Shown piece after piece: positions 6,087-44,582 of a stretch of DNA of 44,582 bases (positions are counted from its first letter, which is position 1; every line of letters begins with the position of its first letter). The DNA is from a virus. The notes under the pieces are model-generated. The model did not search any database. It worked only from the letters and a program-made list of their open reading frames with translations, and had not been told where the DNA came from. Position numbers and translations under genes: made by a program. The DNA lies in the IMG/VR virus record IMGVR_UViG_3300011888_000001, positions 1 through 44,582 of that record; one strand, 5' to 3'.

Positions 6087-6162
6087 TGGCATGTAGCTCA
6101 GCAGGTAGAGCAGGCGGCTGTTAACCGCCCGGTCGGAGGTTCGAACCCTCCCGTGCCAGCCA
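6087..6162 (+). tRNA. tRNA-Asn (anticodon GTT), 76 nt with encoded CCA
   Basis: Hand-folded cloverleaf: acceptor TGGCATG/CGTGCCA, D arm GCTC-AGCAGGTA-GAGC, anticodon arm GGCGG-CTGTTAA-CCGCC, T arm GGAGG-TTCGAAC-CCTCC, discriminator G, CCA. Confidence 0.9.
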
Positions 6163-7292: not shown

Positions 7293-7780
7293 GCTTCGAT
7301 CTGGCCTTCACCCGCCTCATGGGCTCCGAGGGTGGTTACAGCAATCATCCGAGCGATCCCGGTGGCGAGACTATGTGGGGCATCACTGCCCGGGTCGCGC
7401 GCGCTAACGGCTATCAGGCCGAGATGCGTAGCCTGACCAAGGAGAAGGCCAAGGAGATCGCCAAGAAGGTGTACTGGGACCCGCTCAAGTGCGACCAGAT
7501 GCCCTTCGCCGTGGCGTTCCAAGTCTTCGATGGCTCGTACAACTCCGGCCCCGACCAGTCCGCCCGCTGGCTCCAGCGCGCCCTGGGTGTGGCAGATGAC
7601 GGCAAGATCGGCCCGATCACTCTCGCCAAGCTCAAGGCTGAAGACCCGGCCCGCATAGCCGCCGAGTACATCAGCCAGCGCGGCCACTTCATGACCAAGC
7701 TTTCCACCTGGTCCACCTTCGGAAAGGGCTGGGCGAATCGCCTGTTCGACAATCTCGGATACCTAGCGGCTGACCTATGA
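7289..7780 (+). CDS. Endolysin, GH108 lysozyme-like domain + PG_binding_3-like C-terminus
   Basis: LMGSEGGYSNHPSDPGGETMWGIT is the GH108 signature. The C-terminal VADDGKIGPITLAKL is peptidoglycan-binding-like. Confidence 0.88.
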   Translation: MSFDLAFTRLMGSEGGYSNHPSDPGGETMWGITARVARANGYQAEMRSLTKEKAKEIAKKVYWDPLKCDQMPFAVAFQVFDGSYNSGPDQSARWLQRALGVADDGKIGPITLAKLKAEDPARIAAEYISQRGHFMTKLSTWSTFGKGWANRLFDNLGYLAADL

Positions 7781-8313
7781 GCGCGCTGCTGCTCGCATGG
7801 CTTCGGGCTCACTGGCTTCCCATAGCCATAGCCGCCATCGCGATCATCAGCCTGATCTGGTACGGCCACGAGAAGGACCAGGCAGGCTATGACCGTGGCG
7901 TCGCTGAGTGGAAAGGCAAGTACGACCAAAAGGCCGCCGACCTGGCAGCCGCCCAGGCCCAGTTCGAGAAAGAGCAGCGCGCCGAAGAGACCCGACGCCA
8001 AGACGCGATCGACCAGGTACGCCGAGATGCCCAAAAGCAGGTACAGCAAGCAAGCGCTGATGCTCGTGACGCTGATGCTGCTGCTAAGCGGCTGCAGCAA
8101 CAAGCCGACCGACTGGCAGCCGCCTACCGTAACTCCAGCAAGAATCCCGGAACTCCCACAGGAGGCCAGGCAGCAGCCTGCCCCGCCGGAGTGCTTGCCG
8201 ACCTGCTCCGCGAATCTGATGCACGCTCGGGAATCCTGGCTGCGCAGGCTGACAGAGCAAGGGACGCCGGCAATACCTGTGAGCGTTCCTACGACTCCCT
8301 GAATAAACGATAA
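7777..8313 (+). CDS. i-spanin (Rz-like)
   Basis: N-terminal TM segment (WLPIAIAAIAIISLIW) followed by a long charged coiled region. Contains an embedded +1-frame lipoprotein gene. Confidence 0.8.
   Translation: MSALLLAWLRAHWLPIAIAAIAIISLIWYGHEKDQAGYDRGVAEWKGKYDQKAADLAAAQAQFEKEQRAEETRRQDAIDQVRRDAQKQVQQASADARDADAAAKRLQQQADRLAAAYRNSSKNPGTPTGGQAAACPAGVLADLLRESDARSGILAAQADRARDAGNTCERSYDSLNKR
8027..8302 (+). CDS. o-spanin (Rz1-like lipoprotein), fully embedded in the i-spanin gene
   Basis: MPKSRYSKQALMLVTLMLLLSGC has lipobox LSGC. The mature part is Pro-rich (PPTVTPARIPELP...PAPPEC). Lies in the internal frame of 7777..8313. Confidence 0.8.
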   Translation: MPKSRYSKQALMLVTLMLLLSGCSNKPTDWQPPTVTPARIPELPQEARQQPAPPECLPTCSANLMHARESWLRRLTEQGTPAIPVSVPTTP

Positions 8314-23406: not shown

Positions 23407-25205
23407 CGATCTTCACTGACGGCCTGGTCGAGCGCCGCGACCGCAACCTGCTGGACGATGTGGCATCTGGCCAGTGGGAGTCGGCCAAGGCTGCCTTCGA
23501 TGAAGCGTGGTTCCAGAACCCTACCACGGCCTTGCGCCGTATGGGTGAGCTGAACACCGCAGAGCAGGGCAGGGTGATCACGCCTGCGTATCCGGCCTAC
23601 AACATCCCCGAGCAGCGCGCCGAGCCAGATACTCCGCTGGTCACCGCGGAGCAGGCTCGTCAGCAGGTGGCCGACGCTGGGGTCAAGCTGAACATCGAGG
23701 ACGCCGGCATTCGCCAGGGCGCCCTGGACATCCTCATCCAGCGCAAGCAGGCCGAGCGCCAGCGGCAGATGGTGCTGGATTCCGCCCCAGGCTCATCGGT
23801 CCCGCTGCAACTGCTGGCCGGCTTCGGCGCCTCGGTGCTTGATCCGATCAACATCGCGTCGGCCTTCATTCCGGTCGTGGGTGAAGCGCGCACTGCTGCG
23901 CTGCTGGAACGTGCCGGTTCTTCGGTGGCTGCTCGTCTTGGTGCTCGGGCTCAGGTCGGAGCGATCGAAGGTGCGGTGGGTGCTGCTGCTGTCGAACCGA
24001 TCGTGTTGGCCGCCAGTGCCCAGGACCAGTCGGATTACGGCATCAAGGACTCGCTGCTGAACATCGCCTTCGGGTCGGTGCTGGGCGGTGGCCTGCACGG
24101 CGCCGGCGGTTTCGTGTCGGACCGTATCCGCGGCAACGTGCTGAATGATGTGCGGGCCGAGACCGGTGGTGAGACCGCTCGCGCGCCGGGTGAATCCGGC
24201 AGTGAGGGTCTTCGCGTGCCGGGTGAGACCACCACTGAAACCGCTATACCTGCCGATGTGTCGCGCCGCACCAGCCTGGCTGAAGCCATTTCCCGCGGCG
24301 ATGACAACCCCATGCAGGCGCTGCGCACCAGCCTGGAGCGTGGGATAGGTGCCGATCGCCAGAGCATCCTTGAGTCTGCGCGCCTGCAGGCTCGTGATGA
24401 GGTCCTTCCACAGATTCGCAGCGACATCGACGAGGCTGTCGCTGGGCGCGTGGCAAACGTTGCCGACCTGCGCGCCGAGCAGCGCCAGCTCCAGACTCGG
24501 CTGGATGGCTTGGACGATACCTATCGCACACGCGCCAAGGAGTTCCAGCAGCAGCGCATGACTCGCAAGCAGGCCGAACGCGCCGCGCGTGACGCCATTG
24601 CTGCAGAGCGTGAACAGATCAACACCCGCATGGGCGAGATCAACGACGGCCTGGACGTCAACCGCGCCTCCGAGGCCGGGCGTCGGGAGCGCGCCGCCCT
24701 GGGTCGTGGTGAACTTCCCGAGCGGTACAACGCCCAGATCGAATCTCGCGCCCAGCAGATCGCCGGCGGCTTCGAGCTGAGCAATACCGCGCGCTTCGTG
24801 GCTGAGAACTCGCCTTGGCAGATCCGCCAGGCCGCCCTGCGCTCTGCAATTGCCCAAGCCACCACGGGCCGCGACGTCGACGTTCAGGCGCTGTTCGACT
24901 TGCCGGACCCGATTAAGCGCACTGCCGCCATGGAGCAGCTGACCAAGCCGGCGGCACCCCGGGTCGATCGGGAAGGTACCCAGGTCTCCGCCCGCATGGA
25001 TGAACTGTCCACTTCGCCGGATACCACCGACCTTGCCGAGGCAGAACGCCAGCTGGCCGATGAGTTGGCCCTGACCGATGAGGCTGCGCGGAATGCCGGC
25101 CTGGATGCTGCAGAATTGCTGCGCGACGCTAACACCCTGGTCGCCGACTCCGATACCTACGCCGCCGCCTACCGCGCCGCGGCCGTGTGCCAGCTGAGGA
25201 AGTAA
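23403..25205 (+). CDS. Internal virion/ejection protein (gp16-position, part 1, 600 aa)
   Basis: ATGA coupling. A Gly/Ala-rich hydrophobic block (LLAGFGASVL...IAFGSVLGGGLHGAGG) is followed by Arg/Glu-rich helices. Confidence 0.5.
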   Translation: MTIFTDGLVERRDRNLLDDVASGQWESAKAAFDEAWFQNPTTALRRMGELNTAEQGRVITPAYPAYNIPEQRAEPDTPLVTAEQARQQVADAGVKLNIEDAGIRQGALDILIQRKQAERQRQMVLDSAPGSSVPLQLLAGFGASVLDPINIASAFIPVVGEARTAALLERAGSSVAARLGARAQVGAIEGAVGAAAVEPIVLAASAQDQSDYGIKDSLLNIAFGSVLGGGLHGAGGFVSDRIRGNVLNDVRAETGGETARAPGESGSEGLRVPGETTTETAIPADVSRRTSLAEAISRGDDNPMQALRTSLERGIGADRQSILESARLQARDEVLPQIRSDIDEAVAGRVANVADLRAEQRQLQTRLDGLDDTYRTRAKEFQQQRMTRKQAERAARDAIAAEREQINTRMGEINDGLDVNRASEAGRRERAALGRGELPERYNAQIESRAQQIAGGFELSNTARFVAENSPWQIRQAALRSAIAQATTGRDVDVQALFDLPDPIKRTAAMEQLTKPAAPRVDREGTQVSARMDELSTSPDTTDLAEAERQLADELALTDEAARNAGLDAAELLRDANTLVADSDTYAAAYRAAAVCQLRK

Positions 25206-27761
25206 ATGGCCGCTCAAGATTGCATCGACGTTGTCCAGGCCGCCGCCAAGGCCGCCGGGCGTGAGCTGAACCTGGAAGAACTGTCCGAGGTGTTCGAAGA
25301 GCTGCAGGCGCGCCAGAAGGCTCTGATGGCTCGCGACACCATGCTCAGCCTGGAAGACGCCGCCCTGCGTGCTGCCGATGAATTGGGCAACGAGGTCAAG
25401 CTGGCCGCGGTGATCGAGAAGCGCAACGCCGCGATTAACGCCCGACGCCGGGCTGAGTTGGCCGGCTACATCCAGAACACCTGGGCTGACCGCCCTGACT
25501 TGGGTCTCGAGTCCTTCCTGGTCGGGACCAACGTCACTCGTCCCGGGGCGCGCCGCTCGGTTGCAGCAGAGCAGAAGCAGTTGTCCCAGGCCTATGTGGC
25601 CGGCTTCCTCAACGACATCGAGCGCGCTGACCTGCTGCCTTTCCTGACCAGAGGGGATCTGGACGAGGACATCGCCACCTCGCTCTGGCGCCTCGGTATG
25701 GACATGCCGCAGGACGGCATCGGCAAGGAAGCCCAGGCCATCGCCAAGATCATGCAGAAATACCAGGAGGCCGCTCGGATCGACGCCAACCGCGCCGGCG
25801 CTTTCATCCGCAAACTGCCGGGCTACATCGTTCGCCAGTCGCACGATCCCTACAAACTCCAGCGCGCCGGCTATCAGCAGTGGCGCGACGAGATCATGCC
25901 GCTGCTGGACGAATCTACTTTCGACGGCGTGGCCGATCGTGACCGGTACCTGCTCAACGCCTACAACGGCCTGGTCTCCGGCGTGCACCTAAAGCCTGCC
26001 AGCGACAAGGCGGTGATCGGTTTCAAAGGGCCTCGGAACATCGCCAAGAAGGTCAGCGCCGAGCGTGTGCTGCACTTCAAGGACGGGGTTTCGTGGAATG
26101 CCTACAACCGGGTCTACGGTTCCGGATCGTTACGAGAGGCGTTCCTGGGTGGCCTGGACAGCATGGGTGAGTCCACCGGCCTCATGAAACGCCTGGGCAC
26201 CAATCCAGAAGCCAACTGGAACGCGGTGCTGGACGACCTGCAGCGCAGCTTCGCTGATGATCCGCTGGCCCTGCGCAAGTTCGAGTCAGACCGCCGCGGC
26301 ATGCTGGCCACCCGATTCGCCGAGATTGATGGCACCTCTCGCATGGCTGTCAACCACGTCGGCGCCCGGGTCGCGTCCAACCTGCGCGCCTGGCAGTCCA
26401 TGGCGAAGCTGGGCGGCGCGGTGGTGTCGGCGGTGACTGACCTCCCGGTGGCCGCCAGCGAGTTCCGCTACCAGGGCCGCGGGATGCTCTCCAGCATGGG
26501 CGATCTGATTGGTGGCCTGGTGCAGGGCCGCAAGAGCGCGGAGCAGCGTGAGATCCTTTCCAGCCTGGGCGTGTTCTTCGACAACGTCCGGGGCGAGGTG
26601 GTGAGCCGCTTCAGCGCCGATGACACCTTGGGCGGCAAGATGAGCCGGGCCCAGCACATGTTCTTCAAGCTGAATGGTCTCACCTGGTGGACCGACGCCA
26701 TGCGCTCCAGTGCGGCACTGATGATGAGCCACCACCTGGGTCTGAGCCGCGGCAAAGCCTGGGGCGCGGTAAACGAAGACCTGCGCCGGACGCTTGAGCT
26801 GTTCGACATCGACGAAGGAAAGTGGGACCTGCTGCGTGAGACCCCTGGCCGCCAGGCTGATGGCCGCGAATACATGACCGCCCAGGGCATCACCGATATT
26901 CCTGACGAGCGAATCAGCCAGTACCTGGAAAGCGTGGGCCGCCCGGTGAACCCGGCATCCATCGGCGAGATGCGCGAAGAGCTGGCCGGCAACCTGCGCT
27001 CCTACATCACCGATCGGGGGAGCTATGCGGTGATCGAGCCGGACGCTCGAACCCGCGCCATCATGCGCCGCGGCACCCGGCCCGGCACGATCGCTGGCGA
27101 ACTGCTGCGCTTTGTGGGCCAGTTCAAGGCGTTCCCTGTCGCAGTGCTTCAGAAGACTGTGGGTCGTGAGCTGTACGGGCGTGGGTACACACCCACCCAG
27201 TACGGATCGGCACCGGGCAAGGAGATTATCCAGGCCCTGCGCAGCGGGAACGGTGAGAAGCTGGGAATGGCGCAGCTGATGCTGTGGACCACCATCTTCG
27301 GCTATGGCGCTATGTCGGCCAAGGATGTGCTCAAGGGCCGCAACCCGCGCGAGCCCGACGATCCCAAGACCTGGCTGGCTGCCATGCTGCAGGGTGGCGC
27401 CCTGGGCATCTACGGCGACTTTCTGTTCGGCGAATCCAGTCGGTTCGGCGGCACCCTGAGCAGTTCGCTGGCCGGCCCGGTGATTGGCGGGATCGATTCC
27501 CTAAATGACCTCTATCAGCGCGCCAAGAACGGCGACGACCTGGCGGCCTCTTCCCTGCGCAATGCCTTGAATAACACGCCGTTCATGAACCTGTTCTACA
27601 CCCGGGCGGCGGCAGACTACCTCTTCCTCTACAGCGTGCAGGAGGCCGTAAATCCTGGGGCTCTGAGGCGCATGGAGCGGCGCACGGAGAAGGAGAACTC
27701 CCAGACGTTCCTGCTGCGACCGTCTCAGACATACCTCGATCCGCTGGGATTGACCCGCTGA
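25206..27761 (+). CDS. Internal virion/ejection protein (gp16-position, part 2, 851 aa)
   Basis: Starts 1 nt after the previous stop. It is the largest protein of the virion block. No lytic transglycosylase motif recognised. Confidence 0.5.
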   Translation: MAAQDCIDVVQAAAKAAGRELNLEELSEVFEELQARQKALMARDTMLSLEDAALRAADELGNEVKLAAVIEKRNAAINARRRAELAGYIQNTWADRPDLGLESFLVGTNVTRPGARRSVAAEQKQLSQAYVAGFLNDIERADLLPFLTRGDLDEDIATSLWRLGMDMPQDGIGKEAQAIAKIMQKYQEAARIDANRAGAFIRKLPGYIVRQSHDPYKLQRAGYQQWRDEIMPLLDESTFDGVADRDRYLLNAYNGLVSGVHLKPASDKAVIGFKGPRNIAKKVSAERVLHFKDGVSWNAYNRVYGSGSLREAFLGGLDSMGESTGLMKRLGTNPEANWNAVLDDLQRSFADDPLALRKFESDRRGMLATRFAEIDGTSRMAVNHVGARVASNLRAWQSMAKLGGAVVSAVTDLPVAASEFRYQGRGMLSSMGDLIGGLVQGRKSAEQREILSSLGVFFDNVRGEVVSRFSADDTLGGKMSRAQHMFFKLNGLTWWTDAMRSSAALMMSHHLGLSRGKAWGAVNEDLRRTLELFDIDEGKWDLLRETPGRQADGREYMTAQGITDIPDERISQYLESVGRPVNPASIGEMREELAGNLRSYITDRGSYAVIEPDARTRAIMRRGTRPGTIAGELLRFVGQFKAFPVAVLQKTVGRELYGRGYTPTQYGSAPGKEIIQALRSGNGEKLGMAQLMLWTTIFGYGAMSAKDVLKGRNPREPDDPKTWLAAMLQGGALGIYGDFLFGESSRFGGTLSSSLAGPVIGGIDSLNDLYQRAKNGDDLAASSLRNALNNTPFMNLFYTRAAADYLFLYSVQEAVNPGALRRMERRTEKENSQTFLLRPSQTYLDPLGLTR

Positions 27762-27767
27762 TTACCG

Positions 27768-27791
27768 AGCCCGCATCCCGCGGGCTTTTTT
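27768..27791 (+). terminator. Intrinsic terminator
   Basis: AGCCCGC-atccc-GCGGGCT followed by TTTTTT. Confidence 0.8.
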
Positions 27792-27809
27792 ACGCCTGGA
27801 GAACATCCC

Positions 27810-28103
27810 ATGCCCGCTCTACTGAAGTCCCCATCAGCAGCGACATCCCAGACGCTCTTCGTCAACCAGACCATCACCGCGAGTTCGCAGCTCGCCGTGG
27901 AAGGTACTGGCGCTGTATCAGCACAAGCCGTTCTTGAGGGTTCCCACGATCAGAAAGGCTGGATCAATATCGCAACAATGAATGCGTCTGGCAATGACTA
28001 CGCAACCGACGGAGGCCCGTTCCAGACGCTTTGGCCGTACATTCGTGCGCGAATCGTCAGTGTGACCGGCACCGCCACGGTGTACGTCGAGCTCGGGAGG
28101 TAG
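27810..28103 (+). CDS. Small beta-rich virion-associated protein (97 aa)
   Basis: Track ORF with GGAGA RBS. Lies between the ejection proteins and the fibres. Confidence 0.5.
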   Translation: MPALLKSPSAATSQTLFVNQTITASSQLAVEGTGAVSAQAVLEGSHDQKGWINIATMNASGNDYATDGGPFQTLWPYIRARIVSVTGTATVYVELGR

Positions 28104-28106
28104 GAC

Positions 28107-28541
28107 ATGGACCTGACGCCCAGTTCCATCCTCGGCGCGCTGCGCAACCTGGCGGCGATCCCGACCAAGCTTTCGCAGTTGGTAAACGACTCCAACTATC
28201 AGACCGCGCAGACCATCAATAGCACCGTCGTCCCGCGCTACGCCAAGCAGCACGTCACCACCAACACTAGCGGCAACAGCTTCGACACGCTGAACGTCAC
28301 CTGGCCGTCCGGCCGCTTCTCATCTGCGCCGATCATGCCAGACCCGACAGTGGTGATCAGTAGCACCACCCAGGTCTACAAGGCGGTCGTGACCTCGTGC
28401 ACCGCTACCGGCTGCACGATCAAGCTGAGCCAGCAACCCATGGTGGTGAATAACCTGCTCGGCCTGACGTCGCTCAGCCTGCAGACCCCGGTCAGCAGTG
28501 CTCTGACCGTCAACGTCTTCGCCATCCAACAAACCGACTGA
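28107..28541 (+). CDS. Small tail-fibre-like protein (144 aa)
   Basis: KLSQLVNDSNYQT resembles the short N-terminal motif common in phage fibre proteins. The remainder is Thr/Ser/Val-rich and beta-like. Confidence 0.45.
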   Translation: MDLTPSSILGALRNLAAIPTKLSQLVNDSNYQTAQTINSTVVPRYAKQHVTTNTSGNSFDTLNVTWPSGRFSSAPIMPDPTVVISSTTQVYKAVVTSCTATGCTIKLSQQPMVVNNLLGLTSLSLQTPVSSALTVNVFAIQQTD

Positions 28542-28560
28542 CCCCAAGCCAGCCAACCAG

Positions 28561-28585
28561 AACCCCGCCTAGTGCGGGGTTTTTG
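28561..28585 (+). terminator. Intrinsic terminator
   Basis: AACCCCGC-ctagt-GCGGGGTT followed by TTTT. Confidence 0.8.
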
Positions 28586-28604
28586 CATTTCAGGAGCAGT
28601 AACC

Positions 28605-30890
28605 GTGACCGTAGAAAATACGACCAGCATCGTGCAGTACGACGGGGACGGGGTCGCGACCGTGTTCCCTGTGCCTTTCCGGTTCTTCGAGAACACCGAC
28701 CTCGATGTCGTGCGCGTCACTGCGCTGGACGTAGTCGTCCCGCTCACCCTGGGGACGGACTACACGGTTTCTGGCGCGGGAGAGATCAACGGCGGCTCCA
28801 TCACAACCAGCCTGGCCGCGGCCACCGGCGAGCAGATCGTGATTGCGCGCCTACTGCCGCTGACTCAGGAAACGGACCTGCGCAACCAGGGCAACTTCTT
28901 CCCTGAGATCCATGAAGACGTCTTCGACCGGCTCACCATGCTGATCCAGCAATTGAGCGCGGTCACCGGCCGTGCCCTGACCCGCCCCCGCGACGGCGTG
29001 AACTGGGACGCTCAGAACCGCCGCATCAACAACCTCGGCAGCGCTCAGCGCCCGACCGATGCCGCCAACCTGAGTGATGTGACCGGTGCGGTGAATTCGG
29101 CCATTACTGGTGAAGCGCTGGCCCGCGCGGCTGGTGATGCCAATCTGCAGCTCCAGATCGGCGGCCAGATCCCGCTGGAGTCCTCGCGCTTCTCTCCTAT
29201 CTCCTGGCATGACCAGGACATCGGAAACTCGGTCGCCATCCCGTCCTACAAGAACGCGTGGACCTTCGGCCCCCAGATCACCATCGACGAAGGCCAGGTG
29301 ATCACCATCGGTGAGGGGTCGTTCTGGACCGTTGCTGAAGGCGACGAGCAGCAGGGCGGCATCAACCTCTCCGACTATGCCAAGAAGGCGGATCTCGCCT
29401 CGAATCAGGGCGCAGGTCAGGTTGGCTTCCAGGCTGCCGGCTCCAGCGTTCTGCGTACTGTCCAGGGAAAGCTGGCTGAGTACGTTTCGGTGGATGATTT
29501 TGGTGCTGTCCAGAGCACCGAGATCGACTCTGGCCCTGCTATTCAGGCAGCACTGGACTCTGGCGCGACCCTAATCGGTATGCCCGGCAAGGGGTATCGC
29601 TCTAATCAGAAGCTGATTTTCAAATTCAAAGGCCAGATCCTGATCGGCGCTGGTGTCTCTGGAACAACCTTCCTGCTGGCTACTGGTGCCAACGATGGTT
29701 TGCTGTGCAGCGGCCTGAGCGGGTGCGGCGTGGCGCGCATGAAAATCGCCGGCGTATCCAACACCGCCGGCGACCTGATTGCCGTAGAGGACTGCAGCGG
29801 TTTCACCGGGATCGACATCCGCATTGAGGGCGGATTCAACGGGATCCGCTTCAACCGGATTAATGCCTGCAAGCTGGAGCGCTTCGTGATCGCCGACCAT
29901 TCCGGTGAGCACGGAGTTCTGTTCAAGGGTGACACCACGTTTAAGTCGGACGTGCTGAACCTCATCAATGGTGAGATCTCGCATTTCAACAACTCCAACA
30001 TCATCGGCATCCACTGGCAGAGCTACGCCCACTCGCTGACCATGACTAACGTGCGCGTCATCCGCGGCGGCCGAGGACTCTTCACAGAGAATTCAAGCGG
30101 CGATACCACTGGTAATTCCTACCCATCTTTCCTGCAGATGGCTGGTTCCGAGTTCGACTTTTCCAACCGCGAGTGCATTCGCCTCGACTGCATGCGGGAC
30201 GCCTGGATCGTTGCCCCCTATGCTCACGGCTCGGCTACGGCCAGCAACATTTTCATCGGCGCCGATACCGTCGGTGTTCGCCTGGCGATACCCCGTTCCG
30301 CCTCGGCCAGCCTGCACGGCATCTACATGGCCGGCAAAGCGATGGAACTTCTCGGCGGCCACTTCTACAGCAATTCCCAGGCGGCAAGCGGTCAGTCGGA
30401 CGGCATCCGCGTAGGCGCTACCGCCAATGGTCTACAAGTCGTGGGAGTGATCTCTGGCAACGAGAATGATGGCTCTGCTGCCCGGCAGGCCTACGGCATC
30501 AATATTGAGGCCGGCGCCAGCAATATCGCCTATTCCGGTGAGTTCGGCGGAAACGTGACGGCCAACATCCTGTGCCAGACCGACCGTGCGTATGAGGTGG
30601 GCGGCACCTTCCGGCACGTCTTCAAGAACCAGGGTGGCAGCCACTTCGAAGTGGGGGGTAGCGCGAGCCCGGTTGCCAACCAGATCCGTGCAGTAGGTGC
30701 CACCACCAACAACCCGCCGCAGCTTCTCGCCCAGGGCTCTGACGCAAACATCGACTTCCAGCTCACACCGAAAGGGACCGGCCGCATCCGCTTCGGGACG
30801 GTCGTTACATCCGCCGACGTGCCAGTCACGGGGTACGTGGAAATCAAGGCCGCCGATGGCAGCTTGGTGCGCCTAGCGAAAGTCAACTGA
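28605..30890 (+). CDS. Tailspike 1: T7 gp17-type N-terminal tail adaptor + pectate-lyase-like beta-helix depolymerase
   Basis: GTG 28605 after AGGAG (28592-28596). The N-terminus VQYDGDGVATVFPVPFRFFENTDLDVVRV...GTDYTV parallels the recalled T7 gp17 N-terminus (YQLDGSNRDFNIPFEY...DYRF). The central VDDFGAVQSTEIDSGPAIQAALDSG is the Pectate_lyase_3-type opening motif. Confidence 0.8.
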   Translation: MTVENTTSIVQYDGDGVATVFPVPFRFFENTDLDVVRVTALDVVVPLTLGTDYTVSGAGEINGGSITTSLAAATGEQIVIARLLPLTQETDLRNQGNFFPEIHEDVFDRLTMLIQQLSAVTGRALTRPRDGVNWDAQNRRINNLGSAQRPTDAANLSDVTGAVNSAITGEALARAAGDANLQLQIGGQIPLESSRFSPISWHDQDIGNSVAIPSYKNAWTFGPQITIDEGQVITIGEGSFWTVAEGDEQQGGINLSDYAKKADLASNQGAGQVGFQAAGSSVLRTVQGKLAEYVSVDDFGAVQSTEIDSGPAIQAALDSGATLIGMPGKGYRSNQKLIFKFKGQILIGAGVSGTTFLLATGANDGLLCSGLSGCGVARMKIAGVSNTAGDLIAVEDCSGFTGIDIRIEGGFNGIRFNRINACKLERFVIADHSGEHGVLFKGDTTFKSDVLNLINGEISHFNNSNIIGIHWQSYAHSLTMTNVRVIRGGRGLFTENSSGDTTGNSYPSFLQMAGSEFDFSNRECIRLDCMRDAWIVAPYAHGSATASNIFIGADTVGVRLAIPRSASASLHGIYMAGKAMELLGGHFYSNSQAASGQSDGIRVGATANGLQVVGVISGNENDGSAARQAYGINIEAGASNIAYSGEFGGNVTANILCQTDRAYEVGGTFRHVFKNQGGSHFEVGGSASPVANQIRAVGATTNNPPQLLAQGSDANIDFQLTPKGTGRIRFGTVVTSADVPVTGYVEIKAADGSLVRLAKVN

Positions 30891-30908
30891 TCCAACCAAC
30901 CGAACAAC

Positions 30909-30936
30909 AGCCCTCCCGCCGGAGGGCTTTTTTTTG
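30909..30936 (+). terminator. Intrinsic terminator
   Basis: AGCCCTCC-cgcc-GGAGGGCT followed by eight T. Confidence 0.85.
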
Positions 30937-30952
30937 CCCAAAGGAAAACCCC

Positions 30953-32758
30953 ATGAGCACACTTCGCGCCAATCGTTTGATGTCGTTGGACGGATCTGCA
31001 GCGGTCGATATTTCGTCGCTGATCCGGCTGGACAACCTGTCCCAGCTGCGTAGCTACAGCCGATTCTTCGGCAGCCGGATCAACGTGGACGGCGCGGTCG
31101 CGGCCGGTGACGGCGGTGGCGGCCTCTACCAGTACGATGCCTCGGACAGCGTGACCCCGGATGACGGTGGCTCGGTGATCGTGGCGTCCGACGGCGGTCG
31201 CTGGAAGCTGCGTCAGAACACCCCTATCTGCGCGAACCAGTTCGAGTCTGTCGCCAAGGCCATGGCTTCGGCTGTTCGTGAGCTCTGGATCACCCAGGAT
31301 ATGACCGTCTCGGCCAACCAGACCTGGCCGGCGGGCAAGACCTACACCGTCATGAACAACGCGACGATCACGGTCAGCCCCGGTATCACCCTGACTATCC
31401 GCGGCAAGCTGAACGCTCCAGTCCGCCGGATCTTCCAGGGCAACGGTTCCGTGATCGGCCTTCGCTATGCCCGCCCCGAGTGGTGGGGCGCCGTGGGCGA
31501 CAACAACACCGACTGCGCCGCCGCCTTCAACTCCGCCAGTGCCTGCGTGGCCGGCAGTGTTGCTTCCGACTCGGTTCGCCCGACCATTGAAATTGGCCCA
31601 GGCCAGTTCCTGATGGGCGCCACCTGGCTGGTCAATGCCTCGGCCAACGTCGGCATCGAGATCTTCGGCCAAGGCTCCATCTTCTCCGGCACCCGCCTGG
31701 TGGCCGCGTCGACTTTCTCCGGCAGCCAGCTGATGTACATCCCGGGCAGCACCGATGGCACCCAAAAGATCGTGGATATCCGCATGCGCGACTTCGGCCT
31801 GGTGCCGCGCACCCCAGGCTCTGGTCCTTCGATTGGCCTGCAGATGGGCACCACCAACGCCGAGCTGATCGGACTGCGTGAATCCCCGATTCAGGATCTG
31901 TACATAGCCAACTTCGGGCGCTCGCTGTACCTGTGCAACACGCGCCTGCTGAACTTCGCTCGGATCGGCATCTGGAACGATGGCATGACCTCGGCCAGTG
32001 CTTGCCTGTTCATTGAAGCAGCAGGTCGGTTCTGCGGTGACATGAGCTTCCGCAACTGCCAGCTGACCAACCAGGCTACCGTGGTGAACAGCCGTGATAT
32101 CAGCCTGTCGGTGAACGCACCCTTCTCCGGCTCCACCGGCTACAACCAGCTGGCCGGTATCCGCTTCACCGAGTGCGTCCTGTACCCGGCCTACCAGAGC
32201 GTCTACGGCACTGCCCTGGCCGGCGGCCTGATGACTGACCTTTTCTTCCAGAACTGCCAGTGGGACGGTGATTCTTACGAGATGATGAACCTCATCGCCT
32301 CGGGCTCTGGCTCTCTGGTGCGCTGCATCAAGGTGAACGGCTGCTACATGTTCGGCGGCAACAAGTCGAACACCAACTCCCAGCTTGAGTTCAACGGCAC
32401 CGCCTCGGGCGCCGTACGCGACGTTACCGTGACCGGCACCACCATCGGCCAAGGTGCATCGCGCGCCATCAACCTGGCCGGCACCGTGGTCGGCGCCACC
32501 CTCACCAGCAACGTCATCTACGACTTCGGCAACCCGACCAACGCGGCGATTGAAGTAGGGCCTTCTTGCTCGCGCGTGACCGTCACCAGCAACCGTGCCG
32601 ATCGGTCGGGCGGTGCGTCGTTCCCGTACCTGATCCAGCTGGATAACGGTGCCGACTTCCTGATGGTCACCGGCAACACCGGCCTGGGGATCGTCAGCTC
32701 AGCCACCGTGCAAGACAACTCCACCACCACGAACAAGGTTGTGGCGAACAACCTGTGA
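30953..32758 (+). CDS. Tailspike 2: second beta-helix depolymerase-like protein (601 aa)
   Basis: PEWWGAVGDNNTDCAAAFNSA (pectate-lyase-like opening motif). Repetitive N/G/T/S/V-rich beta-helix-like sequence. Lacks the gp17-type adaptor. Confidence 0.7.
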   Translation: MSTLRANRLMSLDGSAAVDISSLIRLDNLSQLRSYSRFFGSRINVDGAVAAGDGGGGLYQYDASDSVTPDDGGSVIVASDGGRWKLRQNTPICANQFESVAKAMASAVRELWITQDMTVSANQTWPAGKTYTVMNNATITVSPGITLTIRGKLNAPVRRIFQGNGSVIGLRYARPEWWGAVGDNNTDCAAAFNSASACVAGSVASDSVRPTIEIGPGQFLMGATWLVNASANVGIEIFGQGSIFSGTRLVAASTFSGSQLMYIPGSTDGTQKIVDIRMRDFGLVPRTPGSGPSIGLQMGTTNAELIGLRESPIQDLYIANFGRSLYLCNTRLLNFARIGIWNDGMTSASACLFIEAAGRFCGDMSFRNCQLTNQATVVNSRDISLSVNAPFSGSTGYNQLAGIRFTECVLYPAYQSVYGTALAGGLMTDLFFQNCQWDGDSYEMMNLIASGSGSLVRCIKVNGCYMFGGNKSNTNSQLEFNGTASGAVRDVTVTGTTIGQGASRAINLAGTVVGATLTSNVIYDFGNPTNAAIEVGPSCSRVTVTSNRADRSGGASFPYLIQLDNGADFLMVTGNTGLGIVSSATVQDNSTTTNKVVANNL

Positions 32759-32763
32759 TCACC

Positions 32764-32785
32764 AGGCCCGCTACTCGGCGGGCCT
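32764..32785 (+). terminator. GC hairpin without U-tract (possible weak terminator/processing site)
   Basis: AGGCCCGC-tactcg-GCGGGCCT with no T-run downstream. Confidence 0.35.
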
Positions 32786-32810
32786 CACCCTCTCAAATGG
32801 AAATCAAATC

Positions 32811-34223
32811 ATGGCAGATTTACCGTGGTACGAAGTCGTGCAGCCGAGTTTCGTCAATGGCCGCTATTACCAAGTGGGCGAGGTAGTTCAGGTGGACGGC
32901 GCGGTCGGTGATGGCTTCTCGCCATTGAGCCCGGGCGATGCCGCCAAGAAGCGCAACATCCCGGTCCTGCTGCCGCACGACCTGTCGAATCAGCATCTGA
33001 ATCCGACCACTAGCGTCTTCACCAAACACCTATTCGGGCGTCTGAAGACCCAGGCCGCGCCGAACGCCATCACCTTCCACATGCAGGTGGAGCTCGAGAC
33101 CGACTTCCTGTCCTTCCGAATCGGCATCCCCAACATCCACACCGCAGCGGTGACCGGCGTTAAGGCCAGCGTCGGGGTGTGTTCATCAGTTCCGGCAGCA
33201 GACTTCCAGGTCTTCCTGGCGCCGGAGAACAACGAGTGGATCGACTGCACCTTCAACGGCGCAGCCACGGTTGACCTGCCGGCGCAGATCGCCGTCGAGC
33301 GCTACAGCATGAGCTGGTCGGACTTCGTCTTCCTACCCAGCATTCCGCGGGTTGACGCCAGCACCGGGCGCACCCTGGTCATGATCCGGATCGAGTACCC
33401 TGCCGGCTCCACCCTGAGCACCCCGTACAACGACCTGTACTTCTGGCGCGGTGCCAGTGCGGCGCGTGTGTACCGCAGCTCGAACCAGGAGGTCCAAGGC
33501 GTCACCACCAAATCGGCCTTCACCCAGAACAACGTGGTCAGCTCTGGCGGCGATACCAAGGCAGTCGTGCCGGCCATCCAGTACACCACGCTGGCCCGCG
33601 GCCATCAGCTCATGATCATGGGCGACAGCATCCAGGAAGGCCTGGGCGGCAACGTCCGCGACTTTGGCGCCATCCAGCGGGCGGCCTACGAGATTTCCAC
33701 ACCCTCGCGTCCGATGGAGTATTTCAACGCCGGCCTGCACGCTCAGGCACCGGACACCTACAGCCGGATGCTGGAAGACCACGGCCCCAATGTGCGTCCG
33801 ACCATCCTGACCTACTCGCCCTGGTCCGGGAACGATGTGACTGCCGGCAGCGGCTTGACTACCGCGGCCATGCGCCGGCTGAAGGGATCACTGGGCCGGG
33901 TGTACGCCACGCTGCGTACCGGCGGCATGAGGCCGGTGATTCTCTTCCCGGAAGCGCTGCCTGCCAACACCGCCTACCGAAATGTGGGCGCCGCCGACCA
34001 GATCCGCCGCGACTACAACGACAACGTCTTGCCCCAGTTCCAGGGCGGGTACGTCATGAAGGGCTACGCCGCGGCGCTGACCGGCACCCGCGACGCCAGC
34101 GGCCAGGACCAGATCAAGGCCGGCGCAACCGGTGATGGAGTCCACCCGAACGACGTGGGGTACGAACTGCTTAAGCCTGTCGTGAAGGCCTACCTGCAGC
34201 AGCTGATTGACCGCACTCGATAG
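32811..34223 (+). CDS. SGNH/GDSL-family esterase with about 300-aa N-terminal domain (470 aa)
   Basis: In-frame ATG 32811. LMIMGDSIQEGLGG (block I GDS), SPWSGND (block III), GDGVHPN (block V DxxH). It is the last gene before attP. Confidence 0.75.
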   Translation: MADLPWYEVVQPSFVNGRYYQVGEVVQVDGAVGDGFSPLSPGDAAKKRNIPVLLPHDLSNQHLNPTTSVFTKHLFGRLKTQAAPNAITFHMQVELETDFLSFRIGIPNIHTAAVTGVKASVGVCSSVPAADFQVFLAPENNEWIDCTFNGAATVDLPAQIAVERYSMSWSDFVFLPSIPRVDASTGRTLVMIRIEYPAGSTLSTPYNDLYFWRGASAARVYRSSNQEVQGVTTKSAFTQNNVVSSGGDTKAVVPAIQYTTLARGHQLMIMGDSIQEGLGGNVRDFGAIQRAAYEISTPSRPMEYFNAGLHAQAPDTYSRMLEDHGPNVRPTILTYSPWSGNDVTAGSGLTTAAMRRLKGSLGRVYATLRTGGMRPVILFPEALPANTAYRNVGAADQIRRDYNDNVLPQFQGGYVMKGYAAALTGTRDASGQDQIKAGATGDGVHPNDVGYELLKPVVKAYLQQLIDRTR

Positions 34224-34226
34224 CCT

Positions 34227-34254
34227 GGTGCAAATCGGGTGCACCGACTGCACC
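34227..34254. repeat. GGTGCA repeats, candidate integrase arm sites (P arm)
   Basis: GGTGCA at 34227 and 34238 (11-bp spacing). Inverted TGCACC at 34249. GGTGCACC (34238-34245) is palindromic. Confidence 0.5.
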
Positions 34255-34348
34255 AAACCATGTGGGTGCGTGTTGGGTCAGGCTTGGTTGAAATGAGGAC
34301 CTGGAGCGGGTCCCAGCAGGGGCGCCGCTCTAGATTCGTACCCGAGCG

Positions 34349-34411
34349 ACGGATTCGAAATCCGTTGAGTCAGCAATGGCTCCTAGGGTTCAAATCCCTA
34401 TCTCTCCGCCA
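34349..34411 (+). other. attP core: 3' two-thirds of a tRNA-Ser(CGA) (anticodon arm to CCA), no 5' half
   Basis: Anticodon arm ACGGA-TTCGAAA-TCCGT (anticodon CGA), long variable arm, T arm TAGGG-TTCAAAT-CCCTA, acceptor 3' strand TCTCTCC-G-CCA. The complementary GGAGAGA is absent upstream. Lies directly upstream of the integrase gene. Confidence 0.75.
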
Positions 34412-34420
34412 CAAATCAAG

Positions 34421-34457
34421 GGTCCCAGGGGTTTGCGCCTCTGGGGCCTTTTTCGTT
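34421..34457 (+). terminator. Terminator downstream of the tRNA fragment
   Basis: Imperfect stem GGTCCCAGGGG/CCTCTGGGGCC followed by TTTTTCGTTT. Confidence 0.6.
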
Positions 34458-34469
34458 TCTGGCGTATTT

Positions 34470-34509
34470 GGTGCAATTCTGGTGCAACGGGTGCGCTCGC
34501 TACACCAAA
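34470..34509. repeat. GGTGCA repeats, candidate integrase arm sites (P-prime arm)
   Basis: GGTGCA at 34470 and 34481, GGTGCG at 34490, and inverted TACACCAAA at 34501 (compare TGCACCAAA at 34249). Confidence 0.5.
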
Positions 34510-34532
34510 TTCAGCAAGCTAAACTTGTAGGC

Positions 34533-35510
34533 ATGGCTACCTACATCAAGCGCGGCGACGCATGGCGCGCCCAGATCCGGCGCAAAGGACACCCAGCACT
34601 GTCGGCCACCTTCGACACGAAGGCGGAGGCACAGCGCTGGGCGGCTGAAATCGAAGGCGACATGTCCCGAGCTCGGTTCGTCGATCTCCGGGAAGCCGAG
34701 CAGACCACCCTGGCCGAAGCACTCGAGCGGTACCGCCGCGAAGTGACCCAGGGCAAGAAGGGTCGGCGCCAGGAAGAGATCAGGATCGACCGCCTAGTCG
34801 AGTCCCGCTATGGGGCCATGTCCCTCGCTGCCATCAAGTCATCCACTATGGCCGACTACCGGGATTCCGAACTGAAGCGCGGCGTATCGACGGCAACCGT
34901 CCGTCTGAATCTGGCAATCCTGTCCCACCTTTATACGGTGGCGGTGAAGGACTGGGGTATCCAGGGCCTGGTGAACCCCTGCAAGAACATCCGGATGCCG
35001 AAGGGTAGCAAGCAGCGCGAACGTCGTCCGACGCAGGCTGAACTGGACAGGCTGTACAAGGCCGCCGGCGAGATGAACGCTCAGCTGCCAGTCATCATTG
35101 AGCTGGCTATCGAAACGGCCATGCGCCGCTCCGAGCTGGTCATGCTGCGGAAAGATCAGATACGGGGAAAGGTGGCGTTCCTCGAGGACACGAAGAACGG
35201 CGAGCGCCGGGCGGTACCCCTGTCGAAGCGGGCCCTGGAGCTCTTGGCGGGATTGCCCACGCCGATTGGCGGCGGGCGGTACTTCTCGCTGACTCTGAAT
35301 ACCGTCAGCAACTACTTCCCGAAAGCCTGCGCCGCGGCTGGAGTGGAAGGCTTGCGCCTTCACGATCTCCGGCACGAGGCGACGAGTCGGCTATTCGAGC
35401 GGGGCTTTAACATGATGGAAGTGGCCTCCATCACAGGCCACAAGACCCTTGCGGTCTTGAAAAGATATACCCATCTCAGCCCGCACGACCTTGCTGAGCG
35501 TCTTGGATAG
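34533..35510 (+). CDS. int: Tyrosine integrase (325 aa)
   Basis: ATG 34533 (MATYIKRGDAWRAQIRRKG...). Catalytic-type motifs AMRRSEL, HDLRHE, ITGHK, RYTHL. The track ORF start at 34239 reads through the tRNA fragment and is rejected. Confidence 0.92.
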   Translation: MATYIKRGDAWRAQIRRKGHPALSATFDTKAEAQRWAAEIEGDMSRARFVDLREAEQTTLAEALERYRREVTQGKKGRRQEEIRIDRLVESRYGAMSLAAIKSSTMADYRDSELKRGVSTATVRLNLAILSHLYTVAVKDWGIQGLVNPCKNIRMPKGSKQRERRPTQAELDRLYKAAGEMNAQLPVIIELAIETAMRRSELVMLRKDQIRGKVAFLEDTKNGERRAVPLSKRALELLAGLPTPIGGGRYFSLTLNTVSNYFPKACAAAGVEGLRLHDLRHEATSRLFERGFNMMEVASITGHKTLAVLKRYTHLSPHDLAERLG

Positions 35511-35841
35511 CCTCCCCGATCTTGGCGGCGGCACGAACAATGGCGCGCCGCAGAGTCTCGCAGGCGTCACCGGTGTCCAACTGCTCTGTCCTTTGGTCGG
35601 CCAGCCATCCAGCAGCTTTGCTGCCGACAACTCGCTCTGTGGCCATGTGGAGTTTCACTGCCAATCTAAAAGCATCACCGTCGTCGGTTAGCGGATTCCA
35701 GTAGAAGAGCTCAGGGCGCGTTCCGGCTATGAAGCCGGCGCCGTAGAGGTCGCCATTATCGGTTTGCCAGTCTTCGCCCCATTCTATTAGCGGAATGCCA
35801 GCAGCCTTCGCTGCCAGCTCCAGCAGTTCACGATCATTCAT
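35476..35841 (-). CDS. Hypothetical protein, paralogue of 5683..5985 (121 aa)
   Basis: ATG 35841 (TGATG overlap with the xis stop). MNDRELLELAAKAAG...WNPLTDDGDAFRLAVKLHMATERVVG...CETLRRAIVRAAAKIG. The 3' end overlaps the convergent int gene by 35 nt. Confidence 0.8.
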   Translation of the reverse strand: MNDRELLELAAKAAGIPLIEWGEDWQTDNGDLYGAGFIAGTRPELFYWNPLTDDGDAFRLAVKLHMATERVVGSKAAGWLADQRTEQLDTGDACETLRRAIVRAAAKIGEAIQDAQQGRAG

Positions 35842-36092
35842 CACGCAACCCCCCGCAACGTCGGCGGCTCTCGCCGCTTTCTCCCCGGCTTGGCCTTATG
35901 ATGCTGGCCGTCCACGTACTCGCGCAGGAACTTGCGCACATCCTCTCTCAGCCAGGCGTGCTTGCCCGCGATCTTCGTTCCCTTCGGCAGCCACTCAACG
36001 CCCCGGCGAATTCCTTCCCTGATAGACGCCTCGGTCTTGCCCAGCATCTTTGCCAGGCCGGCCAGGTAGATCACTTCGCTTTCTTCGCTCAT
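35841..36092 (-). CDS. xis: Excisionase-like HTH protein (83 aa)
   Basis: ATG 36092 after AGGAG. VIYLAGLAKMLGKTEASIREGIRRGVEWLP...KHAWLREDVRKFL resembles AlpA/Xis-type HTH proteins. Lies adjacent to int. Confidence 0.6.
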   Translation of the reverse strand: MSEESEVIYLAGLAKMLGKTEASIREGIRRGVEWLPKGTKIAGKHAWLREDVRKFLREYVDGQHHKAKPGRKRREPPTLRGVA

Positions 36093-36268
36093 GGCTGCTC
36101 CTTGGCCTGGCCGCACATGACTGGTTTATACCAGGATGGCGGGCTAGAAGTTCCTATCTCGCAATCGATCGCATCGTTTCCGCACTTGTCACATCTGCCA
36201 GTGCTGAAACTTGATCCCGATGTCATCCAGCAATTCCCGCACTTTCTGCACTTGAAATAACCCTTCAT
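36089..36268 (-). CDS. Zinc-ribbon-like mini-protein (59 aa), not in the ORF track as a separate gene
   Basis: Hand translation: MKGYFKCRKCGNCWMTSGSSFSTGRCDKCGNDAIDCEIG... (CxxC...CxxC). ATGA overlaps at both ends. A/T-rich codons. Confidence 0.55.
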   Translation of the reverse strand: MKGYFKCRKCGNCWMTSGSSFSTGRCDKCGNDAIDCEIGTSSPPSWYKPVMCGQAKEQP

Positions 36269-36537
36269 ACGCCTCCCGTGTCGCGCATAGCGGCGTCGAT
36301 GTCTGCGTCGGACCAGTCGGCGGGGTGCGCATCGTTTGCACGCAGCCACCGATACCGCCCCGTCTCCGCCTTCAGCCGCTGGATCTCCGGCACGCATGCG
36401 GTGTGCAGGTCGGAGCCAGCGCCGAGGCGTAGCGCGTTGCCGATCTGCTGCAGCACCTCGCCGTGCTTGTTGGTCATTTCGAGCTGAGCACGCAGCTGCT
36501 CTATCTCTGCCCGTAGCCGCTGTACGAGGATGGTCAT
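36265..36537 (-). CDS. Coiled-coil protein with RYRWLR motif (90 aa)
   Basis: Track ORF. LRAEIEQLRAQLE... followed by GRYRWLRAND, a motif I associate with Ea22/ead-type lambdoid early proteins (from memory). Confidence 0.55.
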   Translation of the reverse strand: MTILVQRLRAEIEQLRAQLEMTNKHGEVLQQIGNALRLGAGSDLHTACVPEIQRLKAETGRYRWLRANDAHPADWSDADIDAAMRDTGGV

Positions 36538-44476: not shown

Positions 44477-44582
44477 CGCCTGGGCGACCTGCGGATTGTC
44501 GACCACCAGAAGACCCTCCCAAGGACTTTGACGTCCTGGACAAACTGCTCATGGGTCAGCGTCTCGTCCGGGTATTCCTCGG
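44473..44582 (-). CDS. 3' end of the same repressor gene (stop TGA 44475-44473)
   Basis: Reading through the 87-nt overlap gives ...FWWSTIRRSPRR followed by a stop. The total is 241 codons when the circle is closed. Confidence 0.85.
   Translation of the reverse strand, partial: EEYPDETLTHEQFVQDVKVLGRVFWWSTIRRSPRR
44496..44582. repeat. Terminal overlap copy 2 (identical to 1..87)
   Basis: Direct letter-by-letter comparison. Implies a circle of 44,495 bp. Confidence 0.95.

Follow-up and report, generated by a model that had tools for sequence, protein, structure and literature searches.

How can a phage bring several polysaccharide-active proteins to its tail when only one of them is fitted with a tail anchor? 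The question is raised by five consecutive genes, here called A to E, in a stretch of 44,582 nucleotides (nt) that makes up IMG/VR virus record IMGVR_UViG_3300011888_000001 (positions 1 to 44,582; this whole stretch is referred to as the window). The genes form the end of the late block on the + strand and encode two small proteins (A and B), a tailspike with a predicted anchor (C), an anchor-less second spike (D), and a predicted carbohydrate esterase (E). The initial annotation of the window had described a four-gene cluster; five open reading frames (ORFs) are present, at the coordinates listed in Table 1 and all on the + strand, and the same calls are found on a public contig.

We think it fairly probable that these genes constitute a receptor-recognition module closing the late operon, in which C anchors to the tail, D docks on C, and E is a late esterase that rides on the virion. 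The cluster represents the known anchor-branch class plus a separately encoded carbohydrate esterase, and is no new kind of system.

The mid-domain of spike C and the N-terminal peptide of spike D

By sequence comparison the anchor of C is homologous to the N-terminus of T7 gp17. It matches the Pfam family PF03906 (T7 tail fibre N-terminal domain; E 9e-7, 29.1 bits with a cut-off of 25.2) and phrog_1640 (E 3e-62), and the first 153 residues of C match the N-domain of the Carin-1 tailspike Dpo31 (PDB 8CK1, E 2e-27), a relationship also returned by Foldseek (8CK1_B, Carin-1 tail fibre N-domain, 45% identity). Domain D1 of Dpo31 is described from electron cryo-microscopy as the part linked to the virion base (PMC13317679). 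The AlphaFold2 (AF2) model of C contains a confident beta-sandwich at residues 9-82, a helix at 156-185, and a beta-helix at about 320-650, with strands across 323-650. Foldseek relates this beta-helix to CBA120 TSP3, the Sf6 tailspike and alginate epimerases (AlgE4), and a PF12708 match is weak (E 0.011). The description of C as a spike with a T7 gp17-type adaptor and a beta-helix, given in the initial annotation, is thus borne out by a PF03906 match above cut-off, the AF2 model and Foldseek. The same is true of D, which had been described as a second beta-helix protein lacking a tail adaptor. Residues 172-243 of D align with the first turns of the beta-helix of C in profile-profile comparison (hhalign), there is a profile match to the Sf6 tailspike (E ~1e-3), and residues 16-100 match PHROG families of tail fibres and exopolysaccharide depolymerases; the central domain of D is accordingly predicted to be a right-handed beta-helix. 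A precomputed PF27114 assignment exists for the exact protein; the local Pfam copy gave no match to D, and a phmmer search of PDB sequences gave no meaningful one. Homologues of D carry PF12708, PF18668 or PF09008 (P22-type head-binding N-termini) on the same catalytic body.

Between its anchor and its beta-helix C has a conserved mid-domain of ~85 residues with the motif ...SxFSxISWHxQxIxNS...NAWSFGP...GQxxTxGxGSxWTI. It matches phrog_18671 (E 3e-32), aligning to the C-terminal half of this 197-residue family, and tblastn recovers it from 27 isolated podophages. Elsewhere this domain is the C-terminal end of stand-alone adaptors of 191-291 residues, both in Zobellviridae (O4 gp02, 197 residues; PP21; GP100; CW02 gp55, 191 residues) and in Autographiviridae (phiB1_1 gp41 and Ep4_044), and within LIMEzero ORF46 it occupies an internal position. 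In all seven of these phages the gene with the mid-domain is followed by one for an anchor-less beta-helix or pectate-lyase protein. In six of the seven this downstream spike starts, like D, with MS(T/E)L(R/S)x(D/N)xL...D...DL (O4 gp03, PP21, GP100, CW02 gp54, phiB1_1 gp43 and Ep4_046), and LIMEzero ORF48 has a shifted variant of the peptide. The N-terminus of D reads MSTLRANRLMSLDGSAAVDISSLI; those of the spikes of O4, phiB1_1 and CW02 read MSTLRVDTLQKPDNSVTVNLEDII, MSTLRTDNLETTDSKYSISVRDLL and MSELRLNRIEDKDTNKGVNVDALH, respectively.

A scan of viral contigs with an alignment of the mid-domain gave 48 loci. In these, a strict form of the motif MSTLRxD/NxL...D...DL was counted at the start of any ORF of at least 250 codons lying no more than 3.5 kb downstream, with the other candidate starts in the same loci as background. 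The strict motif is present in 23 of the 48 contigs and at none of the 1934 background starts, and a looser variant of the peptide can be seen by eye at ~42 of the 48 loci. Most of the loci (~40/48) have the stand-alone form of the adaptor. The fused form, in which an extra distal domain is accompanied by a downstream peptide-bearing spike as in the window, occurs in L038, L045, L047 and LIMEzero (L084).

Neither the single sequence of the C mid-domain nor its profile (A7) matches any PDB entry, T4 gp10 and the CBA120 TSPs included, or any Pfam family; the profile returned only coiled-coil noise. Our searches turned up neither a Pfam family for the pair of mid-domain and peptide nor, as far as sequence comparison goes, a solved structure, and the peptide did not come up in the literature that could be searched. 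Within the cluster, B, D and E have no common N-terminal motif, and none of A, B, D and E is similar to residues 150-300 of C (all z-scores <1).

Because D starts with the conserved peptide and C carries the domain with which that peptide co-occurs across podophage families, D very probably docks on C in the anchor-branch manner. The first ~25 residues of D (MSTLRANRL...D...) would plug non-covalently into the mid-domain of C and yield a branched spike that bears two enzymatic heads at each position of the tail. C would be the primary receptor-binding protein (RBP), its beta-sandwich anchoring it to the tail and being followed by a coiled coil, the mid-domain, and a terminal beta-helix that degrades polysaccharide. 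The whole appears to work like an anchor-branch system, and its socket may or may not be of the T4 gp10-like family. The initial annotation had supposed that all the proteins lacking a tail-attachment domain piggy-back on the anchored one. This stands for D, with its docking-type peptide and the co-occurring domain in C; it is unproven for E and B, as neither has the peptide and no partner was found for the N-terminus of E.

Comparison with two metagenomic sister phages shows which parts of these proteins are exchanged. Up to nt 29348, at residue ~248 of C, the first (L022) has 94% identity with the window; similarity is absent across distal C, where L022 has a capsule-depolymerase-type domain (PF26986), and identity is back at 92.6% from nt 30910, in the hairpin after C, through D and E. 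In the second (L023) residues 1-250 of C are kept at 64% identity and are followed by an SGNH esterase as the distal domain of C. The product of the next L023 gene, D' (N-terminus MSTLRVNTLETTDGLRSVNIADLA), has only its first ~100 residues in common with D, and a patch of 67 nt (30907-30973) is the only similarity kept downstream of nt 29344. Residues 151-250 of C are retained only in these two sisters; most relatives keep residues 1-150 alone. The constant parts are thus A, B, residues 1-250 of C, the intergenic hairpin and the N-terminus of D, and the exchangeable parts are distal C and distal D, as one would expect if the N-termini of these receptor-binding proteins serve assembly.

Stable GC-rich hairpins, most with a U-tract, stand at every junction of the cluster (Table 1), with a fifth at 34418-34451, and split it into A-B, C, and D-E. 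Without their U-tracts, the hairpins before A and after C span 27767-27787 and 30909-30928. These units match the recombination borders seen in L022 and L023. Since the hairpin after C is the sole similarity to L023 beyond the breakpoint in C, we suggest that the hairpins also serve as borders for recombination. Between D and E the hairpin has no U-tract, and these two genes are therefore probably co-transcribed. Transcription would read through the remaining hairpins, for instance by means of a Q-type antiterminator as the lambdoid layout suggests. The terminator after C might suggest that D and E are a moron of their own; we rejected this reading, as equally good hairpins stand before A and C.

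The predicted esterase E and its probable role in infection

E is an SGNH carbohydrate esterase by sequence and model, and its activity is predicted. Residues G271-D272-S273, N341 and D442-x-x-H445 are invariant among the 31 homologues compared, and the block II glycine (G308) is an alanine in some of them. In the AF2 model (predicted template modelling score 0.81) an SGNH fold comes after a beta-sandwich. Among PDB entries Foldseek ranks the two-domain carbohydrate esterase 7TOJ first (E 5e-11, 435 columns aligned), ahead of acetyl-xylan, sialate and peptidoglycan O-acetyl esterases (Ape1 and PatB); in BFVD the best match is the POR1 tail fibre, and the neighbours are named tail fibre or minor tail protein. 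E scores 18.1 bits with PF13472, below the gathering score of 32.9, and many homologues have a precomputed PF13472 assignment. The Pfam match alone would fail curation, and it is the invariant catalytic set and the SGNH fold that sustain the esterase domain originally assigned to E. The summary of the cluster as two glycanases plus a deacetylase is acceptable as a description at the level of fold. A phmmer search of PDB sequences with E gave antibody light chains (best E 0.0034), weak hits that we take as chance matches.

The conserved module of E begins at residue ~64, and what precedes it varies with the type of virion. In the window and in L022 it is a segment of 63 residues that is predicted to be disordered and is conserved along with the backbone in L022; a tblastn search with the first 70 residues gave no significant match to phage proteins. 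In POR1 (UniRef name, tail fibre) about 280 residues with collagen-like repeats stand in front of the module, in P0037 a prophage tail-fibre N-terminus (PF08400), in ZRG1 about 80 residues, and in Pseudomonas oryzihabitans prophages about 25 residues. In the P2-like phage ZRG1 the genes for baseplate J and tail protein I immediately precede the E homologue, placing it in the slot of the gpH fibre, and a tail-collar fibre gene comes next. In the lytic siphophage ZQG1 (Bradleyvirinae) the homologue lies between tape-measure/gpM-like genes and gpL.

Given the fibre-fused homologues, the slots in tail clusters, the names of the BFVD matches and the SGNH domain placed on the anchor in L023, we favour a virion-associated esterase acting on surface polysaccharide. 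More broadly, E is likely to be a virion or late-lytic enzyme. It would be made together with D late in infection and would most likely ride on the virion, where it would strip acyl (probably acetyl) groups from the O-antigen, capsule or exopolysaccharide of the host, so that the glycanases or the phage itself could proceed; its presence in virions, its substrates and its restriction to late expression are what we infer from these comparisons.

Several observations weigh against parts of this interpretation. The conservation of residues 151-250 of C is limited to phages that bear D, but these are close relatives, which confounds the comparison. In the AF2 monomer the mid-domain is not modelled (residues 191-265, predicted local distance difference test, pLDDT, ~40). 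The terminator-like hairpins in front of D are uninformative, since A and C have them as well. The assignment of C and D as polysaccharide-degrading glycanases, and likewise the substrate of E, are predictions from fold. E has no recognisable docking peptide or partner, as judged by comparison with the D peptide and by the tblastn search with its N-terminus. In the P. oryzihabitans prophages (L003 9317-11709) the E homologue is situated between a GH19 endolysin and a spanin-like gene, beside an ssrA/smpB prophage end, and in Providencia phage PSTNGR1 (L017 6959-9554) it is situated between the large terminase and lysis genes. According to the PhiPLPE annotation, mass spectrometry confirmed the presence of gp34 and gp35 in virions; the E-like gp33 carries no such entry.

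The alternative that survives best is that E, and possibly D, stay outside the virion, as soluble late enzymes that lysis sets free and that act in trans. Such enzymes could deacylate or degrade polysaccharide on neighbouring cells or debris and thereby help the phage to spread, destroy receptors, or aid lysis. In its favour are E without an identified docking element, homologues with short N-termini among the lysis genes (or near them, in PSTNGR1), the PhiPLPE annotation, and the peptidoglycan O-acetylesterase Ape1, along with PatB, among the Foldseek matches. The same module is nonetheless fused to fibre N-termini (POR1, P0037) and found inside tail clusters (ZRG1, ZQG1), the lysis cassette of the window is about 25 kb away from E (~6975-8313), and the 63-residue extension is specific to the lineage and conserved with its backbone in L022; in the case of D, the docking peptide is a strong argument for incorporation into virions. 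We regard soluble action in trans as unlikely, albeit with real points in its favour, and prefer a virion-borne E.

The position of E raises a further issue. E is indeed, as the initial annotation had it, the last gene before attP; downstream of it are a tRNA-like segment, a hairpin of 15 bp and the tyrosine integrase gene. Within this phage family the interval from the spike gene to the integrase serves as a cargo site. In the temperate Pseudomonas podovirus vB_PaeP_Tr60_Ab31 (Ab31) this slot is taken by ORF18 (L001 16960-18888, - strand), which encodes an AT3 O-acyltransferase with an SGNH domain (PF19040), and in the relative L028 also by an AT3 O-acyltransferase gene (12688-13869, - strand). 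E shares with these both the slot and a connection to the O-acyl groups of surface polysaccharides. The reaction is the opposite one, however, and E is a soluble esterase on the late strand, whereas the AT3 enzymes are integral membrane proteins that the prophage expresses from the other strand. It is conceivable, though we find it quite doubtful, that E, whether virion-borne or released at lysis, is a de-O-acetylase that undoes the O-acetylation imposed by the AT3 genes of sibling prophages such as Ab31 and L028. If this were so, the slot between spike and attP would alternate between enzymes that write and enzymes that erase one surface mark, and E would counter superinfection exclusion based on acetylation and ready the substrate for the co-transcribed glycanase D.

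It had also been proposed that E itself could be a lysogenic-conversion (moron) enzyme that modifies surface polysaccharide; it would be expressed from the prophage and block superinfection. Its place just before attP and the integrase, and the AT3 genes in the same slot, provide a positional precedent, but the AT3 products are membrane proteins whose genes run against the late strand, and E is encoded on the late strand itself, at a distance of 52 nt from D. The + strand within 27000-36500 shows no sigma-70-like promoter, and hence none in front of E, and the hairpin before it has no U-tract. E also lacks a signal peptide and a membrane segment, and could not reach the periplasmic face at which O-antigen is modified; it has no N-terminal hydrophobic segment and no 19-residue window above a Kyte-Doolittle value of 1.6, and none of A to E has a signal peptide or membrane segment. 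The codon usage of E, like that of D, is of the late-gene type and resembles that of the core late genes, and homologues are found in lytic phages, PSTNGR1 (Autographiviridae) and ZQG1 (Bradleyvirinae). We therefore consider lysogenic conversion by E very improbable. Finally, that D is a non-assembling relic, or an alternative spike competing with C for the tail, is hardly credible: D lacks an anchor and single-spike relatives function without any D-type gene, but its frame is intact over 601 codons with a late-typical codon adaptation index (CAI) of 0.70, its DNA is 92.6% identical in L022, and it keeps the N-terminal peptide whose partner domain is present in C.

Cluster borders, small proteins and phage lineage

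The features of the cluster and of the attachment region that follows it are collected in Table 1.

Table 1. Coordinates of the A-E cluster, its intergenic hairpins and the adjoining attachment region in the window (aa, amino acids)
Feature	Position	Strand	Description	Basis
Hairpin before A	27767-27793	+	GC-rich with U-tract, between the 851-aa gene and A; delimits the A-B cassette on its left	fold -15.1 kcal/mol, z -2.3
A	27810-28103	+	97 aa, soluble, beta-rich	phrog_16217, family of unassigned function
B	28107-28541	+	144 aa, minimal fibre-like	single fibre-type repeat at aa ~6-50; C-terminal tip domain of ~100 aa
Hairpin between B and C	28559-28583	+	GC-rich	fold -15.9 kcal/mol, z -3.7
C	28605-30890	+	761 aa, GTG start; putative primary receptor-binding protein	
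C aa 1-150	28605-29054	+	predicted tail anchor (beta-sandwich and helices, T7 gp17 N-terminal type)	PF03906, phrog_1640, 8CK1
C aa ~165-250	29097-29354	+	conserved mid-domain, proposed socket for D	phrog_18671, adaptor homologues
C aa ~290-761	29472-30890	+	predicted pectate-lyase-like right-handed beta-helix and C-terminal domain; exchangeable specificity module	AF2, Foldseek
Hairpin between C and D	30909-30936	+	intrinsic-terminator-like with U8; conserved mosaic junction	fold
D	30953-32758	+	601 aa, beta-helix protein without PF03906 anchor	
D aa 1-26	30953-31030	+	MSTLRANRLMSLDGSAAVDISSLIRL, proposed docking peptide	peptide common to anchor-less spikes after mid-domain adaptors in 8 isolated phages
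D aa 27-601	31031-32758	+	PF27114-type small domain (~27-100), predicted beta-helix from ~aa 170	Pfam, PHROG, hhalign
Hairpin between D and E	32764-32785	+	stable, without U-tract	fold -18.1 kcal/mol, z -4.6
E	32811-34223	+	470 aa, two-domain predicted carbohydrate esterase	
E aa 1-63	32811-32999	+	lineage-specific N-terminal extension, predicted disordered; candidate attachment segment	pLDDT <50
E aa 64-470	33000-34223	+	beta-sandwich (~67-250) and SGNH domain (~255-468); S273, N341, D442, H445	AF2, alignment
attP region	34350-34451	+	tRNA-like 3' segment ~34350-34411, then 15-bp terminator hairpin 34418-34451	
Tyrosine integrase	34533-35510	+	325 aa	precomputed PF00589; 69% identity to Ab31 integrase

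The tRNA-like segment of the attP region, read by eye, comprises an anticodon arm, a long variable arm, a T arm and ...CCA. ARAGORN finds no complete tRNA in this region, and Rfam gives a sub-threshold match at 34357-34408.

The small proteins A and B are no adaptors for D or E. We considered this role for both and rejected it, since relatives that have only one spike also encode them, at ~58% identity; by their presence in such relatives (L027, L028 and L029) they belong to the core of the lineage. A is 96% identical in L023 and ~58-59% identical in L027 and L028, and its codon usage is atypical (G+C content at third codon positions 0.66, CAI 0.39). A scan of viral contigs with A alone, using exact peptide words and so reaching close relatives only, returned nothing. 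B is 94% identical in L023 and ~58% identical in L027, L028 and L029. A comparison with protein representatives gave 404 matches to B, mostly confined to residues ~6-50, which constitute one of 4-21 repeats in phage tail or fibre proteins of 300-3500 residues; the last 100 residues match the C-termini of a few long fibre proteins (P0311, P0362), and the proteins that B matches belong to PHROG tail or tail-fibre families. With a repeat of long fibre proteins and a tip domain, B deserves the name of fibre-like protein that it had been given. A phmmer search of PDB sequences gave no meaningful match to either A or B. We suggest that both would be small virion accessory proteins of the lineage core, B being a minimal fibre.

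Homologues of A (phrog_16217) head accessory cassettes of fibres and enzymes in unrelated phages (L020 4001-7136, L024 3995-5159 and L021 8992-13982). The T4-like Krischvirus G2248 and Aeromonas phage 31 have such a cassette between gp23 and gp24, with a knob-bearing or coiled-coil protein. In Pseudomonas syringae phages Orisa01-03 the lysis genes are followed by A, a GDSL lipase, a 134-residue protein, a collagen-like tail protein and a pectate-lyase protein, and in Orisa03 (L025 5959-7743) the A homologue and the GDSL lipase are annotated as a single protein of 594 residues. We do not accept this fusion as Rosetta-stone evidence; its "linker" translates like intergenic DNA, and it is probably a read-through due to a lost stop codon or a sequencing error. 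In two further relatives, unrelated small ORFs for lipoprotein-like or membrane proteins replace A and B between the 851-codon gene and the spike gene (L012 12562-13223; L013 12544-13017), and this gap may be a second cargo slot.

The window begins and ends with the same 87 nt (1-87 and 44496-44582 are an exact repeat), and its gene set is also found on the 44.5-kb NCBI contig GCA_032069425.1 and on a Logan contig. From this overlap and these public contigs we conclude that the window is a complete, circularly assembled phage genome and not a prophage with host flanks. The internal virion protein of 851 residues encoded upstream of A is 57% identical to ORF16 of Ab31, and 68-82% identical to the products of prophage genes of Pseudomonas luteola, P. 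segetis, Geopseudomonas sagittaria, Halomonas and a Sphingopyxis metagenome-assembled genome. The virion and tail spikes of Ab31 have been likened to those of P. putida phage AF, epsilon15 and phiV10 (PMC3974807). The gene order is lambdoid, with NinB and NinG, holin, endolysin and spanin genes at ~6.5-8.3 kb, and terminase and structural genes, all on the + strand. By its gene content the window is a temperate podovirus with an Ab31-like backbone, and its host is probably a Pseudomonas. A megablast of the cluster region against isolated phages gave no match.

We note two further features of the genome. A tRNA-Asn (GTT) gene is located at 6087-6162, just upstream of the holin-endolysin-spanin cassette (about 6975-8313). 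Two long ORFs run on the - strand, one of 731 codons over the ejection-protein genes (23793-25988) and one of 640 codons over C and D (30530-32452). The translations of both are rich in Gly, Ala and Arg, and the public contig has no gene call at either place; these ORFs are probably spurious products of the high GC content.

Relation to known branched receptor-binding systems

Systems built from an anchor, a branching domain and a conserved peptide have been modelled for Klebsiella phages (PMC6872550) and recently verified by engineering (PMC13352976), and they offer the closest parallel to C and D. In KP32, K11 and KP34 (Latka et al. 2019, PMC6872550; Latka et al. 2026, PMC13352976) RBP1 has, like C, a T7 gp17-type anchor, immediately behind it a docking domain, and then an enzymatic domain, and RBP2 has, like D, no anchor and an N-terminal peptide that is short and conserved; there too, the distal domains are swapped by recombination. 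The short first RBP of KP34 group A, which ends in a docking fragment, corresponds to the split form of O4, CW02 and phiB1_1. The systems differ in that the peptide of the Klebsiella phages is MALxxLV whereas that described here is MSTLRxD/NxL...D...DL, over about 25 residues, and in that their branching domain resembles XD2/XD3 of T4 gp10, to which the mid-domain of C has no match detectable by sequence or profile. Those phages are moreover lytic Autographiviridae, whereas the window is an Ab31-like temperate phage and has the third enzyme gene, E, in addition.

As described in two reports (PMC13352976, PMC13123978), Escherichia phage G7C resembles the window in being a podovirus with a branched spike (gp66/gp63.1) and an SGNH esterase that de-O-acetylates O-antigen. 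In G7C, however, the esterase is the secondary RBP, docked on T4gp10-like domains of gp66, whereas here the docked partner would be the beta-helix protein D, and the esterase is a third protein with no recognised docking element, composed of a beta-sandwich and an SGNH domain and closest to 7TOJ. Salmonella phage epsilon15 gp20 (bioRxiv 10.64898/2026.07.31.742079) likewise combines a beta-helix endorhamnosidase with an SGNH O-antigen deacetylase, but it does so in one polypeptide of which the esterase is a "petal" domain; in the window the activities would be split over the glycanase-like C and D and the esterase E, and in L023, one of the two sisters, the anchor bears an SGNH domain in place of the beta-helix. 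SGNH receptor-binding proteins also occur in Klebsiella prophages, and these are cited together with G7C gp63.1 and the epsilon15 petal for the type of role envisaged for E. The arrangement of K1-5 and SP6, as it is summarised in PMC13352976, is similar in that the anchor is separable from spikes bound through short N-terminal peptides, a split that O4, CW02 and phiB1_1 also show; the anchor protein C differs in keeping a beta-helix of its own, and the likeness to K1-5/SP6 is drawn from their description.

Branched receptor-binding systems decide host range and are in use for plug-and-play phage engineering (PMC13352976), and the locus described here is a clean natural example in a temperate podovirus of the Pseudomonas type. 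The pair formed by the SWHxQ...NAWSFGP domain and the MSTLR... peptide is widespread, being found in Zobellviridae, several lineages of Autographiviridae, and Ab31-like phages. If the pair is confirmed, spikes could be transferable between these families provided that their first ~25 residues are kept. The separately encoded esterase, for its part, adds to the growing evidence that de-acetylation is a common step of infection in temperate phages (PMC13123978).

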